64,000 nucleotides of DNA, from contig JAFQHI010000026.1 of the NCBI GenBank assembly GCA_017398045.1, forward strand, positions 99,513-163,512, given 5' to 3'. Origin of the DNA: Alistipes sp. (GTDB lineage Bacteria > Bacteroidota > Bacteroidia > Bacteroidales > Rikenellaceae). Below, in pieces: positions 11,984-45,247 of the stretch. Every line of letters begins with the position of its first letter. Positions within the stretch are counted from its first letter, which is position 1. Under the pieces are notes generated by a model. That model made no database searches. It worked only from the letters and a program-made list of their open reading frames with translations, and was not told the DNA's origin. Both the position numbers and the translations under genes were made by a program.

Positions 11984-12094
11984 ATAAAGGTTGCTAAAAG
12001 GGTGTGTTAAAGGATTGCTAAAGGTTACTAAAGGTGATTAAAGGTAGCTAAAGGCCCCCCTAATTTTTAATTCTAAATTCTAAATTCTACATTC
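11984..12094. repeat. 10-bp-period [CT]TAAAGG array followed by an AATTCTA heptamer array
   Basis: ctaaaggtta ctaaaggtga ttaaaggtag ctaaagg (to 12054); aattcta aattcta aattcta cattc (12069-12094). Confidence 0.8.
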
Positions 12095-15600: not shown

Positions 15601-15694
15601 ATTAAAGGTAGCTAAAGGTGACTAAAGGTGACTAAAGTGTGAAACTCCTATTGTGCCTTCCCTTAGTAACCTTTAGCAACCCTTAGTTCCCTTT
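15601..15694. repeat. 10-bp-period [CT]TAAAGG array with an inverted second arm
   Basis: attaaaggta gctaaaggtg actaaaggtg actaaag ... cttagtaacc tttagcaacc cttagttccc; 18-mer attaaaggtagctaaagg is identical to 12037-12054. Confidence 0.8.
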
Positions 15695-39064: not shown

Positions 39065-39220
39065 TAAGGGTGCTTAAAGGTGCTTAAGGGTGCTTAAGGG
39101 TGCTTAAGGTCTCTTAAGGTCTCTTAAGGTTTCTTAAGGTATGGCCGTCTTTAGCTTCCTTTAATCTCCTTTAATCTCCTTTAATCTCCTTTAGTTCCCT
39201 TTAGTTCCCTTTAGCTCCCC
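39065..39220. repeat. Two-armed 10-bp-period array (CTTAAGG units, then CTTTA[AG] units)
   Basis: tgcttaaggg/ctcttaaggt x~7, then ttaatctcct/ttagttccct x~7. Confidence 0.85.
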
Positions 39221-39344
39221 TTTCCTCCTCACTCTTCTTTCTCTTCTCTTCTCTTCGCTCTTCGCTCTCACCTCTTTCCTCTTTGCTCTTTCCTCTTTAA
39301 CCCACCTTCGGTGGCTTGACTTTACGCTTTACGTTTCCTCCTCG

Positions 39345-39448
39345 CGGCTTGGCAAAACCCAAACGAGTTTGGGTTTGCTCTCGCTCCGCAGCGTCGGTTG
39401 CTCCGGCTCGGCATCACGCAAGCGTGTGCGCTCGCCTTAATCGCAAAG
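39345..39448. repeat. Two REP-like hairpins embedded in pyrimidine heptamer tracts
   Basis: cggcttggca-aaacccaaacgagtttgggttt-gctctcgc and cggctcggca-tcacgcaagcgtgt-gcgctcgc. Confidence 0.55.
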
Positions 39449-39699
39449 TTGCCTCTTTGCTCTTCTCTCTTTGCTCTCTCTCTCTCTCCTCTCTTCTCTC
39501 TTTGCTCTTTCCTCTCTGCTCTTTGCTCTTCTCTAATTGCTTGTGTTTGAGCGGTTACCCTCTGTGTATTGTATTTTTCTAAAAATTTCGAGGTTGAAAA
39601 ATTTGCTATTATAAATAGTAATAATAAAATGTTACCAAAAATTTAGAACGCTTGCAAAGTGTTAGAACAGAGCAATATACAAAGCTACAAATCGAAATA

Positions 39700-39964: not shown

Positions 39965-40144
39965 ATGAAGAGAGGAGCAAAAATCTATCTTGTACCTCAA
40001 ACCGAGTTGGTTCGGGTACAGGTCGAAGGAACATTCGCGGCCTCGGATTATGAGCCGGGTGATGAGGTGGTGAACAATGGAACCGATATCAATACCGAAA
40101 ATCAGGTCGGTGGTGAGGATTTCGAAATTGGCAGCTGGGATTAA
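39965..40144 (+). CDS. Small 59-aa acidic peptide of unknown function
   Basis: MKRGAKIYLVPQTELVRVQVEGTFAASDYEPGDEVVNNGTDINTENQVGGEDFEIGSWD*; below the ORF-track cutoff; 31 nt before the pilin gene. Confidence 0.65.
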   Translation: MKRGAKIYLVPQTELVRVQVEGTFAASDYEPGDEVVNNGTDINTENQVGGEDFEIGSWD

Positions 40145-40175
40145 CCCGCGGTGTTTGACGAAAAAAGTTACAGCG

Positions 40176-42296
40176 ATGAAACGATATATTCTTTTTTGGA
40201 TGGCTACGGTTGCTTTGGTGTTGAGCAGCTGTACGAAAGACGAGACCGGTGAGGAGAACCCCATCGGTGGCAATGAAATTAACTTCGGCATGGTCGATAC
40301 GCGCACCATCTATGGTGAGCAGCAGAGCGACAAGAGCTGGCCGGTCTATTGGAGTGCGGGTGACCAAATCAAGATTTATTGCGCCCAGACCCCGCAGGGC
40401 AGTGCTGTCTATGCCACGGATGGTGACGGAAGCAGCCCGGCAGCCAATATTACGAAGACGACCAATCCGCTGACCTGGAACGAGCAGGGTGGTGTGGACC
40501 ATACCTTCTATGCCATCTATCCCGCTTCGGATAAGATTACGGTGGATGAAAACGGTATTGCCAATTTCCCCATCATCCGCAACCAGAAGGCTACGGTTGA
40601 GAATACAGATGGCTATAGTGCTAATGTGGTAGCCCAGGCTGATATGACCAACCAGTATATGGTAGCTACGAGTGCGGTGAATCCTGCCGATTTGACCGAC
40701 GGTACGGTGTGGCTGGGCTTTAAGCCCATTATGACCACGCTCGATGTGGTGATTACGGCCGCGGACGGGGACCAGAATAGTGCGAGCGCAGCACGTGTGA
40801 CGGGTATCTCGATTGCTTCGACCATTTCGACCAATTCGACGGCATCGAAAGAGAATTTCTACTATAATATCGCCGGTGGGGCAATTACTTCAAACGGTGC
40901 AACCTCTACGGGTTCGGCTACCGAGCAGACCGAAACGACCTTTGTTGGTTTGTATGATAAATCGGGTAATGCAACTTATGTCGATATGGCCAACGGCAAG
41001 ACTTTGACCATTACGGTTTTCCTCCCGCCGATGAGCAAGGAGGTGGCCGCACAGCTGGGTCGCAAAGTGAAGGTGCGTGTCCATGCTACGGGTAATACGG
41101 AGTTGGTGGCTTCGCTCAAAACGAATGATAAGGAATCGACCAATTGGACCACGCAGCTTGCCCCCGGCTCGAAGAGCCGAGTAAAGCTGCCCGCTATTCC
41201 GAATGTAGCCACAGCGATAGGTAACAACTGGATTACCCCGCTTGATGACAATATCTATGTATCGCAACTTTCGATTCCTGGTACGCACGATGCTGCAACA
41301 GGAGATGGTACATCGTTCTCGCTTGGTAAGACGCAAGACGTTGACATCGAAGGCCAATGGGAGATGGGTATTCGTTGCTTTGATATCCGTCCTCGTGAAG
41401 GTAGTGAGGATGATACTCAATTAGATTACGGAAATTCATTGTGGGTTAATCACGGAGCAGTGTCAACTTCGTGGTCAATGGATGCTATAGTTAAAACATT
41501 CAAAGCCTATCTGGAGGCAAATCCGGGCGAGTTTGTAATTGTGATTATGCGCCATGAGACAGAAGGTGATGACGATAGTGCGACTTGGGCTGATACGATG
41601 GCCGATGCTTTGGCCGATTATGCTTCTTTAACGAATGTTACCACGGGCGAGGGATTAACGGTGGATTTCAAACCTGATTTAACAATTGGTGAGTGTCGTG
41701 GTAAGATACTATTTATGATGCGTAGTTGGACCCCTTATACAGGTGGCCCAACGGTTGGTGGATACCATAGTTGGAGCCATGATGCTGCGGCTGTTCAATG
41801 CTCCATTTGGGGGCCTGGTAGTCCGACGGGAGTTTTGTATGTTCAAGACTACTATAATATCGATTTGGGTTTCACTATTTTCCCCAATTATGATAAAACC
41901 GACCACGAAAATATCTATAAAAAGCAGAACGCTATATGTGATATGTTGGATTTGTCGGCTAAAAGCCATACGGATGAGGCGTATAAAAATGCTTGGTTCT
42001 TTAACCATCTTTCTGGCTACTTATATTATACAATAGGCGATGTCGGTGCTTCAACGACGGCTGGATATCGCTATAATGCTCGAAACAATCATCCCGTAGC
42101 GTATAATTATATTTATAACAATAAAGTGACAATCAATGGTGTTACCCGTACAAAAGTTACAGGCTCGACTGGAATCGTGTTGATGGACTTTGTTGGTGCT
42201 GCATCATCAGATGGTGTGGCTGTGCAAGGAGACCTTTGCCCCCAGGCCATCATCGACAATAACTACAAGTATCGCATGAAGCGTAAGGGTGAGTAG
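40176..42296 (+). CDS. Lipoprotein: fimbrillin (type V pilin)-like N-terminus fused to a PI-PLC X-domain
   Basis: Start refined to MKRYILFWMATVALVLSSC (lipobox); TRT..W.AGDQIKIY and FYAIYPA pilin motifs; NWITPLDDNIYVSQLSIPGTHDA, KTQ, GIRCFDIRP, VNHG. Confidence 0.78.
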   Translation: MKRYILFWMATVALVLSSCTKDETGEENPIGGNEINFGMVDTRTIYGEQQSDKSWPVYWSAGDQIKIYCAQTPQGSAVYATDGDGSSPAANITKTTNPLTWNEQGGVDHTFYAIYPASDKITVDENGIANFPIIRNQKATVENTDGYSANVVAQADMTNQYMVATSAVNPADLTDGTVWLGFKPIMTTLDVVITAADGDQNSASAARVTGISIASTISTNSTASKENFYYNIAGGAITSNGATSTGSATEQTETTFVGLYDKSGNATYVDMANGKTLTITVFLPPMSKEVAAQLGRKVKVRVHATGNTELVASLKTNDKESTNWTTQLAPGSKSRVKLPAIPNVATAIGNNWITPLDDNIYVSQLSIPGTHDAATGDGTSFSLGKTQDVDIEGQWEMGIRCFDIRPREGSEDDTQLDYGNSLWVNHGAVSTSWSMDAIVKTFKAYLEANPGEFVIVIMRHETEGDDDSATWADTMADALADYASLTNVTTGEGLTVDFKPDLTIGECRGKILFMMRSWTPYTGGPTVGGYHSWSHDAAAVQCSIWGPGSPTGVLYVQDYYNIDLGFTIFPNYDKTDHENIYKKQNAICDMLDLSAKSHTDEAYKNAWFFNHLSGYLYYTIGDVGASTTAGYRYNARNNHPVAYNYIYNNKVTINGVTRTKVTGSTGIVLMDFVGAASSDGVAVQGDLCPQAIIDNNYKYRMKRKGE

Positions 42297-42794
42297 TTGG
42301 GGTGTAAGGCTTGCCGGCTAAAGTATCTTAAGGGAGCTTAAGGGGGCTTAAGGAATTTTTCCAGTCGTCTTTAAGCAACTTTCAGTAACCTTAAGCAACC
42401 TTGACCGACCTATGCAAGCGAGCCGACGGTAAACAACCCTACAAGGCTTATTTGAAGCGTAAGGGCGAGTAGTTGGGGTGTAAGGCTTGGCGGTAAAGTA
42501 TCTTAAGGGAGTTTAAGGGGACTTAAGGATTTTTTCCTGTCGTCTTTAAGCAACTTTCAGTAACCTTAAGCAACCTTAACCGACCTATGCAAGCGAACGG
42601 ACGGTAAACAACCCTACAAGGCTTATTTGAAGCGTAAGGGCGAGTAGTTGGGGTGTAAGGCTTGCCGGTAAAGTATCTTAAGGGAGTTTAAGGGGGCTTA
42701 AGGAATTTTTCTTGTCGTTTTTAAGCAACTTTCAGTCACCTTAAGCAACCTTAACCGACCTATGCAAGCGAGCTGACGGTAAACAACCCTACAA
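42263..42794 (+). repeat. Three tandem 175-176-bp units starting inside the 3' end of the pilin-PLC gene
   Basis: ctacaa at 42263, 42439, 42614, 42789; tgaagcgtaaggg[tc]gagtag at 42277, 42453, 42628. Confidence 0.92.
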
Positions 42795-42941
42795 CCTGCC
42801 CGCAACCCCAAAAAGATGACCGAGGGTTACCCATCGGCCCTGCGGTCGCTTTTTGAACCTATTTTATTTCGGTTGATCGGCGAAGTGCAGTCGGAGGCCT
42901 ACGGCTGTATCGGAGCAATCAACATATCCTCTCTTTTTTCG

Positions 42942-42985
42942 GAACGAACCGCCTCTCTCTCTCTTCGCGGTTCGTTCTTTTTTTT
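42942..42985 (+). terminator. Intrinsic terminator
   Basis: gaacgaaccgc / gcggttcgttc plus T8. Confidence 0.7.
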
Positions 42986-43000
42986 GTGGGGCGCGGTTGT

Positions 43001-43098
43001 AAAGTCCCTTAAGGGAGCTTAAGGTTACTTAAGGTTGCTTAAGGGGAGGTCTTTAAGGTACTTTAAGCACCCTTCAGTATCTTTAAGGCACCTTAAAA
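43001..43098 (+). repeat. Left flanking 10-mer array/direct repeat of the four-helix-bundle gene
   Basis: 43019-43098 matches 43799-43878 at 78/80 positions. Confidence 0.9.
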
Positions 43099-43108
43099 AA
43101 AGAAAAAT

Positions 43109-43139
43109 TTTGCAAAAAGCGTGAAAAGGAGTACCTTTG
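43109..43139 (+). promoter_or_regulatory. Bacteroidetes promoter (-33 TTTG, -7 TACCTTTG) of the four-helix-bundle gene
   Basis: TTTG at 43109 and TACCTTTG at 43132-43139. Confidence 0.65.
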
Positions 43140-43160
43140 AGTCTATTAAAGTGGTTTTTT

Positions 43161-43709
43161 ATGGCAGGTTTGGTCCCTAACCGAGGTAATTATCGGCAAC
43201 TGTTATGTTATCGCAAAGCAGAGGCAATCTATGATATTACCTATCATTTCGTGATGCATTTTGTGGAACATGGTGACCGAACTCGCGACCAAATGGTGCA
43301 GGCGGCACGTTCGGGGAAACAAAATATCGCAGAGGGGTACGCGGCCGGTGCGACCTCGAAAGAGACGGAACTCAAGTTGCTTAATGTGGCTAAGAGTAGT
43401 TTGAATGAGTTGTTGGAGGATTATTTGGACTATTTGCGCACACGTCGGTTGCGTCGCTGGGAGGAGTCGAGTGTCGAAATGAAACGCGCGCAGGAGTTGG
43501 GCAAGGAGCATAACGATACCGAGTTTTGGATGTCGATTGTGGAAAATCGTGGCGATGAAACCGTTGCCAATATAGCTATCGTGTTGCTCTACCAGGCCGA
43601 CTATTTGATATATAAGTATATTCAGTCGGTCGAGGCTCGTTTCCTGGAGCAGGGCGGTTTCCGTGAAAAACTCTCCATGGAGCGTCGTCGCGCGCGAGGA
43701 CAGAAGTAA
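43161..43709 (+). CDS. Four-helix-bundle protein (TIGR02436-like, with suffix domain)
   Basis: Start refined to ATG 43161; GNYRQLLCYRKAEAIYD, DRTRDQMVQAARSGKQNIAEG, VAKSSLNELLEDYLDYL, FLEQGGFREKL. Confidence 0.85.
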   Translation: MAGLVPNRGNYRQLLCYRKAEAIYDITYHFVMHFVEHGDRTRDQMVQAARSGKQNIAEGYAAGATSKETELKLLNVAKSSLNELLEDYLDYLRTRRLRRWEESSVEMKRAQELGKEHNDTEFWMSIVENRGDETVANIAIVLLYQADYLIYKYIQSVEARFLEQGGFREKLSMERRRARGQK

Positions 43710-43717
43710 GAAAGAGC

Positions 43718-43896
43718 CTTAAAGTTTCTTAAGGGAGCTTAAGGTTGCTTAAAGTTTCTTAAAGTTTCTTAAAGTTGCTTAAAGTTACTTAAGGTTACTT
43801 AAGGTTACTTAAGGTTGCTTAAGGGGTGGTCTTTAAGGTACTTTAAGCCCCCTTCAGTATCTTTAAGGCACCTTAAAACTCACCTTAAAACTCACC
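43718..43896 (+). repeat. Right flanking 10-mer array/direct repeat
   Basis: About 10 units of CTTAA[AG]GTT[ATG]-type, then the 80-bp block shared with the left flank. Confidence 0.9.
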
Positions 43897-43921
43897 CTTT
43901 TCCGCTTTTTTCTTTGGAAAA

Positions 43922-43953
43922 TTTGTTTTTCGCAAAAACATTATCTACCTTTG
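43922..43953 (+). promoter_or_regulatory. Promoter of rpmE
   Basis: TTTG (43922) and TACCTTTG (43946-43953). Confidence 0.65.
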
Positions 43954-43993
43954 TCCCGCTTAAGCAAATAACACATTAAAAACAAAAACGCAA

Positions 43994-44263
43994 ATGAAAA
44001 AGGGTATTCATCCGGAGAATTATCGTTTGGTGGCATTCAAGGATATGTCGAATGACCACGTGTTTTTGTGTCGGTCCGCCGTTTCGACGAAAGAGACTAT
44101 TGAGGTGAACGGCGAAACCTATCCCGTGTATAAGATGGAAATCTCGAACACGTCGCACCCGTTCTACACGGGTAAGATGAAGCTCGTAGATACCGCCGGT
44201 CGCGTCGATAAGTTTATGAGCCGCTACGCAAAGCGTTACGATAAGAAGAACGCTGCGAAGTAA
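43994..44263 (+). CDS. rpmE: 50S ribosomal protein L31 (type B)
   Basis: MKKGIHPENYRLVAFKDMS...EISNTSHPFYTGK...AGRVDKF. Confidence 0.96.
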   Translation: MKKGIHPENYRLVAFKDMSNDHVFLCRSAVSTKETIEVNGETYPVYKMEISNTSHPFYTGKMKLVDTAGRVDKFMSRYAKRYDKKNAAK

Positions 44264-44280
44264 TTTTCGTCAGCCGAGTG

Positions 44281-44311
44281 AGTGGGTCGCCAAAGGGTGA
44301 CCCACTTTTTT
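44281..44311 (+). terminator. rpmE terminator
   Basis: agtgggtc / gacccact plus T-run. Confidence 0.75.
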
Positions 44312-44380
44312 GTGCGGTGAAATGCTGAATGTTGAATTTTATTTCGTACCTTCGTCCTTGATTTTAACCATCAAACCATT

Positions 44381-45247
44381 ATGAAGCAACTTTTTTACCT
44401 CTTGTTGGCGGCGGTGATGACCCTGCCGTCGTGTGTGTCGAAGCAGGTGGCCCTCGAAACCGAGTCGCAGCGCGATTCGTTGGCACAGGTGGTGCGCACG
44501 AAGGACTCGCTTATCGAGACCGTCTTTGCCGACATCAACGCCATCAGCGATAACCTGGCCCGCATCAAGGCGCGTGAGAATATCATCACGGCCGTGGACC
44601 CCGAGGGTATTCGTCGTCCCCTCGACCAAATCAACAGCGACATTGCCGCCATCGACGAACTGATGCAGGAGAACCGTGAGCGTTTGGCCGGCATGGAGCG
44701 CACGGCCAAGCAGTTGCGCCAGGCAAACGTGCGTATCAAGAGCCTGGAGCATCTGATTTCCGACCTCAATGGTCAGCTCGACGAGAAGAACAGCGAGATT
44801 TCGCAACTCCGCACCCGCGTGGCCGAGATGAGCGTCGAGGTCGAGGAGCTGGAGACGAAGCTCGAGGAGGAGATTGCCGTGCATCGCCAGGAGGTCGATT
44901 CGCTGGTACAGGACAACACCTCGCTCGATGAGCAGCTGCACGCCGTCTATTATATTGTCGGTCAGGAGAAAAAACTGCGCGAGGCGCAAATCATCGACAA
45001 GCGCGGCTTTATCGGTCGCACCCTTACGACGGCCGAGAACAACAGCCTGGAGTTCTTCCTCAAGGTCGATTCGCGCGAACTGCTCGAGGTGCCGATTCGC
45101 CAAAAACGTGTCACCATTGTTACCTCCCACCCCGAAGGCTCATATCAGCTTATCGAGGCCGAGAATAAGGTGGTGCTGAAGTTGGTCATCACCGACCCCG
45201 TTCGCTTCTGGGAGGCGTCGAAGGTGCTGATTGTAAGCTATAAGTAG
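44381..45247 (+). CDS. Coiled-coil lipoprotein of unknown function
   Basis: Lipobox LPSC, long heptad region, C-terminal ITDPVRFWEASKVLIV. Confidence 0.75.
   Translation: MKQLFYLLLAAVMTLPSCVSKQVALETESQRDSLAQVVRTKDSLIETVFADINAISDNLARIKARENIITAVDPEGIRRPLDQINSDIAAIDELMQENRERLAGMERTAKQLRQANVRIKSLEHLISDLNGQLDEKNSEISQLRTRVAEMSVEVEELETKLEEEIAVHRQEVDSLVQDNTSLDEQLHAVYYIVGQEKKLREAQIIDKRGFIGRTLTTAENNSLEFFLKVDSRELLEVPIRQKRVTIVTSHPEGSYQLIEAENKVVLKLVITDPVRFWEASKVLIVSYK

Follow-up and report, generated by a model that had tools for sequence, protein, structure and literature searches.

Intervening sequences (IVSs) that carry an open reading frame (ORF) within the 23S rRNA gene are known in Coxiella burnetii, Leptospira and Brucella; in the Coxiella IVS, an S23p ORF occupies the loop of a 28-bp stem and is accompanied by tandem heptamers (PMC4990558). 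Here we describe a locus from a 64,000-nt stretch of an Alistipes sp. genome (hereafter the window; unprefixed coordinates are positions in it), in which the gene for a four-helix-bundle (4HB) protein of the same S23p/PF05635 family is bordered on both sides by arrays of 10-nt tandem units. The window's own genome, G000, is a 2.36-Mb assembly that is 91.5% complete. On balance, we lean towards reading the locus as one copy of a widespread, co-inherited module, in which an IVS-family 4HB gene is carried within hairpin-forming arms, as a counterpart outside rRNA of the ORF-bearing rRNA IVSs. To our knowledge, the PF05635/TIGR02436 family has had no known function since the first rRNA IVSs were described.

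The locus shares with the rRNA IVSs the protein family, the placing of the ORF within complementary arms and the adjacent short tandem repeats; the rRNA IVSs likewise have no transposase, a mobile origin has long been suspected for them, and their repeat copy number varies between Coxiella strains (PMC4990558). In these terms, the locus has an S23p-family ORF enclosed between complementary arms that contain short tandem units, but it is not inserted in a 23S rRNA helix. Instead it lies between a lipoprotein/PI-PLC gene and rpmE, and no rRNA match was found in the window. The window gene also has its own promoter motif, and where the Coxiella IVS has a 28-bp stem with heptamers, here entire arrays of 10-nt units make up the arms. 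Both flanks are hairpins in their own right, each built from a forward (F) and a reverse (R) arm, giving the order [F/R]-gene-[F/R], whereas many relatives are arranged F-gene-R. Finally, the window protein has a TIGR04258 suffix domain and is under purifying selection, in contrast to the decaying ORF of Coxiella (PMC4990558). An initial sequence-only reading of the window had presented the locus as a candidate for an undescribed system; with ORF-bearing 23S rRNA IVSs and their tandem heptamers as a published relative (PMC4990558), the kind of system has a precedent.

The GGGNATC heptamer arrays of Xanthomonas and Nostoc are non-coding, typically contain about four units, differ in length between species, are over-represented near stop codons and under-represented between divergent genes, and in Xanthomonas include 70-75 inverted pairs (PMC4692102). 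The text of that paper contains none of the terms 'intervening', 'S23' and 'helix bundle', so it draws no link to the 4HB family. The window arrays resemble these heptamers in being non-coding tandem arrays of short units with a 3'-end bias and inverted pairs. However, the heptamers are 7-nt, G-rich units that have been read as G-quadruplexes, whereas the window units are 10 nt long with the AT core CTTAAG and can form no G-quadruplex.

In REPIN-RAYT systems, associated with the work of Nunvar in 2010 and of Bertels and Rainey in 2011, a single-copy gene is reportedly flanked by cognate hairpin repeats; many dispersed intergenic copies are said to lack the gene, and gene and repeats are said to co-occur across genomes. 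The window module is also a gene amid cognate hairpin repeats with dispersed gene-less copies. It differs in that no Y1 transposase is present (PF01797, the IS200/IS605-like family, had no match in the assembly), the protein is built as an all-helical bundle and lacks any known nuclease fold, and the repeats are highly variable tandem arrays rather than fixed palindromes of about 20 nt. The sequence-only reading had related the protein to Avd, an accessory protein of diversity-generating retroelements (DGRs). Both are indeed placed in the same broad four-helix-bundle superfamily (PF05635/cd16375) (PMC10053308), but the relation is remote: Avd lay outside the top 50 Foldseek matches, the locus has no template/variable repeat pair, and RVT_1 had no match in the whole assembly. 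Because the assembly has neither a reverse transcriptase nor a Y1 transposase, we excluded both a DGR/Avd role and RAYT-type mobilisation.

Tandem arrays accompany the 4HB gene family

Short-period arrays adjoin nearly all of the 24 4HB loci found in relatives (the same genus and one other family), in the layout F-gene-R or [F/R]-gene-[F/R]. Among GTDB species representatives, arrays lay within 400 nt of 62 of 63 4HB loci and on both sides of 38 of them, the loci spanning Alistipes, Tidjanibacter, Prevotella, Muribaculaceae, Tannerellaceae, Bacteroides and others; the expectation that homologues would have flanking periodic arrays was borne out. We then compared 82 4HB loci with 1670 other genes of the window's array-rich genome, using one procedure for all. 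Arrays on both sides were found at 50 of the 82 loci (61%) and at 93 of the 1670 control genes (5.6%), an approximately 11-fold difference, and a repeated 6-mer common to both sides occurred at 24 and 8 of them, respectively (~60-fold). The gene and the arrays co-occur far above chance.

The main rival to the module reading holds that the arrays are generic intergenic hairpins (terminator-, insulator- or REP-like, or simply tolerated) in which 4HB genes land or survive with no interaction, and we consider it rather unlikely. In its favour, arrays of period 9-11, present in 144 of 1308 intergenic regions of the window's genome, are biased towards gene 3' ends (they occur in 19% of convergent, ~10% of tandem and 7% of divergent regions), as are the Xanthomonas and Nostoc heptamers (PMC4692102). 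Cognate arrays at times also flank ordinary genes, for example xylulokinase and uvrB, and a separate multi-copy element of 81 or 155 nt sits inside arrays, suggesting that these can serve as landing pads. However, the 11-fold enrichment of both-side arrays and the ~60-fold enrichment of cognate ones hold even against an array-rich genome.

The repeat period provides a second line of evidence. The short (~120-aa) form of the protein has inverted period-7/8 arms at 28 of 30 loci across the class Bacteroidia, and at 12 of 13 loci within the genus. The suffix-type (~180-aa) loci (n = 87) have period 9 in 65 cases, 10 in 17 and 11 in one. Four genomes (G005, G020, G001 and G008) carry both types, with period 7 around the short form and 9-10 around the suffix type; each type keeps its own period within one genome, and therefore the host does not set the period. 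The repeat unit core also tracks the protein clade. Arms vary fast in sequence and unit number, while the period stays tied to the protein subfamily. A generic hairpin leaves this gene-specific period unexplained, since period and unit follow the gene lineage and not the host. By the same values, the suggested helical phasing of the units does not hold in general, as period 9 prevails at suffix-type loci and 7-8 around the short form.

Another genome, G027, contains a duplication. Its two copies lie 3.8 kb from each other and are 87.8% identical over 755 nt made up of left array, gene and right array; homology stops at the arrays' outer edges, and no target duplication was found at the boundaries of the two copies. 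Here the gene and arrays were duplicated as one unit, and that the duplicates take in the arrays also argues against generic hairpins. We rejected a transposon or miniature inverted-repeat transposable element (MITE), given the lack of a target duplication at the G027 copies and the three paralogues of the window's genome, which are 54-61% identical with different arms.

Within the genus, 13 of 30 genomes have a 4HB gene of any type, and suffix-type genes occur in 9 of 24 sampled genomes. In samples totalling 2.1 Mb, intergenic arrays numbered 5.55 per 100 kb in the 13 genomes with 4HB genes and 0.89 in the 17 without (binomial p = 5e-10), and the 4HB gene count correlated with array density (Spearman rho = 0.79), a genus-level correlation that carries no phylogenetic correction and comes from metagenome-assembled, incomplete genomes broken at repeats. 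Dense gene-less arrays are confined to genomes with 4HB genes, and the near absence of such arrays from the other genomes is a further point against generic hairpins. In the related metagenome-assembled genomes, rpmE and 4HB genes are frequently found at the end of a contig or on a contig 1-2 kb long, which suggests that assemblies break at the arrays and that binned genomes under-count 4HB genes. Such breaks are of practical concern for metagenome assembly.

One intergenic site was found both with and without the gene. In four Alistipes species (loci L127, L130, L149 and L180), a GNAT gene is followed by an F arm of CCTATAAG units, a 4HB gene, an R arm and a membrane-protein gene, and the orthologous site in the window's genome (G000 C15:251165-251384) holds a gene-less F/R array. 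Further filled/empty pairs were not recovered at the GNAT site, where synteny is lost in 29 other sampled genus genomes. At rpmE, where a search for empty sites had been proposed, none of the six available assemblies of the strain has an empty allele.

Layout and history of the rpmE locus

The features of the locus and the other arrays of the window are listed in Table 1. The start codon of the 4HB gene is backed by an N-terminal alignment with 31 homologues, and there is no other credible ORF within 43001-43896; the ORF list agrees with the earlier observation that the cassette encodes no transposase or integrase. The GGT trinucleotide separates the F and R arms in both flanks. The unit order is forward-GGT-reverse on both sides, and therefore each flank is an F/R quasi-palindrome, in which inverted pairs were found. 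The upstream F and R arms are predicted to form a periodically interrupted hairpin (RNA fold -38.8 kcal/mol, z = -3.9), and a T-rich tract directly follows the downstream R arm. The downstream F arm is unusually long, the median arm of the family having 3.8 units. Phased 10-mer arrays on both sides had been described with about two units on the left and about eight on the right; the arrays stand, but we counted 4 + 5 and 11 + 6 units.

Table 1. Coordinates of the 4HB locus, its flanking sequences and other arrays in the window.
Feature	Position	Strand	Details
4HB protein ORF, 182 aa, with C-terminal suffix domain	43161..43709	+	start = ATG at 43161
Upstream F arm, 4 units CTTAAGGnnn, period 10	43008..43047	.	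direct reading; TRF 43008-43045, 3.8 copies
Upstream R arm, 5 reverse-type units (CTTTAAGnnn / CCTTnAGnnn)	43051..43098	.	direct reading, inverted pairs
Downstream F arm, 11 units CTTAA[AG]Gnnn, period 10	43718..43827	.	TRF 43718-43824, 10.7 copies, 87% matches
Downstream R arm, 6 reverse-type units	43831..43894	.	last two units are a 12-nt duplicate, CACCTTAAAACT (2 x 12 nt)
Unit of the arrays at the window 4HB locus, written CTTAAGGTTG
Direct repeat of 80 bp, left copy	43019..43098	+	78/80 identical to right copy
Direct repeat of 80 bp, right copy	43799..43878	+	780 bp from left copy
Bacteroidetes-type promoter motif	43109..43139	+	TTTG (43109-43112), 19 nt, TAccTTTG (43132-43139); motif match only
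Terminator-like hairpin	42941..42985	+	11-bp GC-rich stem (42942-52 with 42967-77), 14-nt loop, T8 run
Gene-less F/R array 3' of eno	39065..39219	.	7 CTTAAGG units, then 7 CCTTTAA/CTTTAG units
Gene-less F/R array	15603..15686	.	CTAAAGGTGA x 4, then CCTTAGnnnn x 3
Gene-less array	11985..12094	.	CTAAAGGnnn x 6, then period-7 AATTCTA array
Tandem repeat of 175 bp	42277..42794	.	TRF; 3.0 copies, 94% matches; each unit holds a single small F/R CTTAAG array

The two 80-bp blocks are as the sequence-only reading had them, in position, identity and spacing. Their common register extends to 99 nt at 93% (43000-43098 against 43780-43878). The block is duplicated only locally; other CTTAAG arrays in the 2.36-Mb genome match it over at most 45 nt at ~90%. 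An orthologous locus on a 2-kb contig from a sister lineage (L118, about 87-90% nucleotide identity) reveals the history of the repeat. Its order is eno, a small ORF, an F/R array, the 4HB gene, an F/R array and rpmE, and its downstream F arm has 2 units versus 11 in the window. The upstream array of L118 is unlike its downstream array, and it has no 80-bp direct repeat, while the window's upstream block matches the L118 downstream R arm at 95.7%. Therefore, the 80-bp repeat arose in this lineage. From this comparison, it is a lineage-specific conversion in which one flanking hairpin was copied over the other, and not an insertion scar. The L118 contig was binned as 'Eubacteriales', yet its flanks match the window's Bacteroidales genome.

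This history bears on the proposal that the 80-bp blocks are recombination sites, at which a 780-bp circle excises and re-integrates in Campbell fashion as a discrete mobile cassette. In favour of the proposal, the two repeats match at 97.5% and have no further copy outside the locus, and the [F/R]-gene-[F/R] order is exactly what would result if a one-hairpin circle integrated at a hairpin in the chromosome. At 7 of 80 4HB loci, the whole hairpin has likewise, and independently, come to form a long direct repeat (>=68 nt, >=90%), which indicates that hairpin homogenisation recurs. However, L118 has the gene in the same place with different arrays and without the long direct repeat, so that the repeat arose after insertion, by conversion, and the blocks fail as a conserved cassette boundary. 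Most 4HB loci are F-gene-R without direct repeats, and the expected direct-repeat flanks among homologues were thus found at a minority of loci. Six independent assemblies of the same strain encode an identical protein, show 100% identity throughout the cassette in every stretch of overlap and include no empty or variant allele; the cassette has no integrase, and the assembly no Y1 transposase. Taken together, we regard excision of such a circle as very improbable. From the identity of the six assemblies, it also follows that the arrays are stable between strains, hypervariable as they are between species.

The earlier reading also gave the gene its own promoter. The ORF is real, and the Bacteroidetes-type motif, a motif match only, sits between the upstream hairpin and the ATG and is kept in L118. 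The terminator-like hairpin lies just 5' of the upstream array and parts it from upstream transcription; a simple terminator scan did not flag it because its loop exceeds 8 nt. The rpmE gene starts at 43994, and the downstream array lies ~60 nt 5' of its promoter motif. With arrays directly 5' of one promoter motif and close to another, the protein could be a DNA-binding regulator or nucleoid-type protein, with the arrays as operators for its own gene and for neighbours such as rpmE, and with no selfish or mobile aspect. The exact 10-bp phase at this locus would set the sites on one helix face, and the strong purifying selection and the lack of a strand bias in RNA folding fit such a DNA-level role. 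We nevertheless consider it improbable. The period is 9 or 7 in most relatives, off the helical repeat, the neighbours differ at almost every locus, and the distribution is patchy even within the genus (9/24 genomes). The rpmE upstream regions of 10+ relatives contain neither the 4HB gene nor an array, and arrays favour gene 3' ends over promoters.

In G017, a heptamer hairpin (L044; AGTTGGT x 3, then the complement) lies ~330-390 nt 5' of rpmE, just past the end of the upstream gene and beside a tRNA gene. It is an orphan array; no 4HB gene was found in G017.

The 4HB protein and its possible action on the repeats

The window protein matched PF05635 at 35.4 bits (cut-off 33.8), TIGR02436 at 36.8 bits (cut-off 24) and, over residues 132-179, the TIGR04258 suffix domain at 57.1 bits (cut-off 40), where FLxxGGxRE is conserved. 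The suffix subfamily comprises ~1,576 clusters (50% identity, E <= 1e-10), and 4HB genes reach 14 per genome in Bacteroidia; no literature mention of TIGR04258 was found. An AlphaFold2 model built from 32 homologues had a pLDDT of 92.3 and a pTM of 0.86, and its best Foldseek matches were 2GSC (Xcc0516; probability 1.0, target-normalised TM-score 0.76-0.81), followed by 2RLD (BT_0352; probability 0.94). A direct sequence search of the PDB gave no match, and a profile search returned 2GSC alone (E = 0.76). Xcc0516 and BT_0352, both of unknown function, share with the window protein a common fold and an aligned R..S..NIxEG motif; they differ from it in sequence (identity only 15-18%) and in length, the window protein being ~60 aa longer; its AlphaFold2 model has a helical hairpin inserted at residues 105-127 and, at the C-terminus, a basic helix.

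The helix-2 motif GxxRxxxSxxxNxxE, conserved in the PF05635/TIGR02436 family (PMC3936711), is present, with AARSGKQNIAEG aligning with RAAVSIPSNIAEG of 2GSC. Among the 32 homologues, R50, S51 and E58 are invariant, N55 is kept in at least 90%, and the segment DQMxQAARSGKQNIxEG is largely invariant. The comparison with the L118 orthologue (dN/dS 0.038 at dS 0.56) shows strong purifying selection on the protein, and the gene is functional. PF05635 genes are also found wedged into cas operons (PMC3936711).

We infer that the protein probably acts on the repeats, because the period is kept while the sequence varies, the period is set by protein subtype, and gene-less arrays co-occur with the gene. 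A homopentameric ring is a feature of the PF05635/TIGR02436 family and, by analogy with Xcc0516, the window protein may form an oligomeric ring that binds the repeat units, as DNA or RNA, with about one unit per subunit. Such binding could regulate or maintain the module, and possibly the dispersed gene-less arrays as well. Spread and loss would proceed via host recombination or template switching at hairpins and not via a recombinase encoded by the element. If the two flanking hairpins recombined, the gene could be lost and a solo array left behind, an event not seen at this locus. Patchy occurrence, duplication as a unit and a site that is filled in some species and gene-less in another suggest mobility, though no moving, excision or mechanism was seen.

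A bolder form of this proposal, possible in our view but doubtful, is that the 4HB proteins are oligomeric readers of tandem units in which the subunit size sets the period (7-8 nt with subunits of ~120 aa, 9-10 nt with the suffix form of ~180 aa). This would be a RAYT/REPIN-like partnership in which no known nuclease or transposase fold takes part. The gene would move while embedded in the sites that its product binds, this product would preserve or spread gene-less arrays by the hundred, and the rRNA IVSs and heptamer families would be special cases. An amino-acid-to-base code could not be separated from common descent with these data, because the variable loop between helices 2 and 3 changes along with both protein clade and repeat unit.

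Several observations weigh against the module reading. The proposed action of the protein on its repeats is drawn from co-variation and co-occurrence, and the genus correlation carries the limits given with it. The most conserved segment of the protein is invariant across clades with different units and therefore cannot encode unit specificity. The upstream array lies 3' of the terminator-like hairpin, and therefore the upstream hairpin, between that hairpin and the promoter motif, may lie outside the 4HB gene's own transcript. No recombinase and no target-site duplication were found, and the six assemblies include no empty or deletion allele. In the window's genome, gene-less arrays far outnumber the genes (144 intergenic regions versus 3 genes), the three paralogues are only 54-61% identical and have different units, with no recent identical copies, and 206 period-7 rows of the tandem repeat finder (TRF) output occur without any short-form 4HB gene, as generic hairpins would also allow. 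G013 similarly has several unit types and a single 4HB gene. An RNA-level role as terminator or stabiliser was dropped as well, because sense and antisense folds are equally stable (44 versus 38 of 82 arrays from tandem intergenic regions folded on both strands, p = 0.5). Rfam 15, including the Gut-1 motif, gave nothing at E <= 1 in 41500-45000; at E <= 0.1, the whole window gave tRNAs plus one sub-threshold match overlapping a tRNA, none on arrays.

With the subtype-dependent period and the gene/array co-occurrence, recognition of repeats by the protein becomes a hypothesis that can be tested for this orphan family; both findings also offer a possible explanation for the abundant intergenic short tandem repeats of gut Bacteroidales. 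New here are the suffix subfamily with its 9-10-nt units, the contrast of periods within one genome, the co-occurrence across the genus and the dating of the conversion behind the direct repeat.

Other arrays and paralogues in the genome

Across the whole genome, TRF also reported 174 period-10 rows, which, like the period-7 rows, are nearly all intergenic, and ~69 loci have at least 3 CTTAAG cores in 10-bp phase. The gene-less arrays placed by the sequence-only reading at 11984, 15601 and 39065 all exist, but the first two consist of CTAAAGG and not CTTAAGG units. Copies of the flanking 6-mer were only mildly enriched inside coding sequence (0.37 versus 0.21 per gene), and the idea of internal repeat copies was dropped.

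The 3 4HB genes of the genome are all of the suffix type and all adjoin arrays, with units that differ by paralogue: CTTAAGG; CTAAGGG; and TTAACGAAA with TTTAATC. At the third paralogue (L025, G000 C16:41890-42000), seven TTAACGAAA-type and then five TCTTTAATC-type units follow; the genome has only 3 arrays of the TTAACGA type. Lipoprotein genes of ~740 aa (40077-42296 and G000 C16:39552-41771) stand directly 5' of two of the three 4HB genes, with tandemly repeated array blocks between. Segmental duplication of lipoprotein gene, array and 4HB gene was rejected, as the lipoproteins share the N-terminal ~120 aa alone, at 28% identity.

The 175-bp tandem repeat belongs to the same repeat class as the cassette arms and shows local duplication activity. 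It begins within the final codons of the 739-aa lipoprotein/PI-PLC gene and duplicates the gene's 3' end. The second 4HB locus has an analogous tandem of F/R arrays, 4 x ~100 bp (G000 C16:39100-39500).

A 155-nt GC-rich core lies at 39296-39455 and recurs at G000 C41:6452-6606, C4:25719-25873, C31:75196-75350 and elsewhere; together with an 81-nt form lacking nt 29-102, it has at least 15 copies at 94-100% identity. The inspected copies are flanked on both sides by CTCTTYG period-7 arrays and usually follow trains of period-10 arrays. The element had no Rfam match, and its fold z-scores were weak (-0.3 and -1.6). Sub-modules of the 155-nt element are multi-copy in 22 of 40 other genus genomes, with up to 21 matches, and the 155/81-nt sequence appears to be a MITE-like or small-RNA-like element that lies inside arrays and was active recently.

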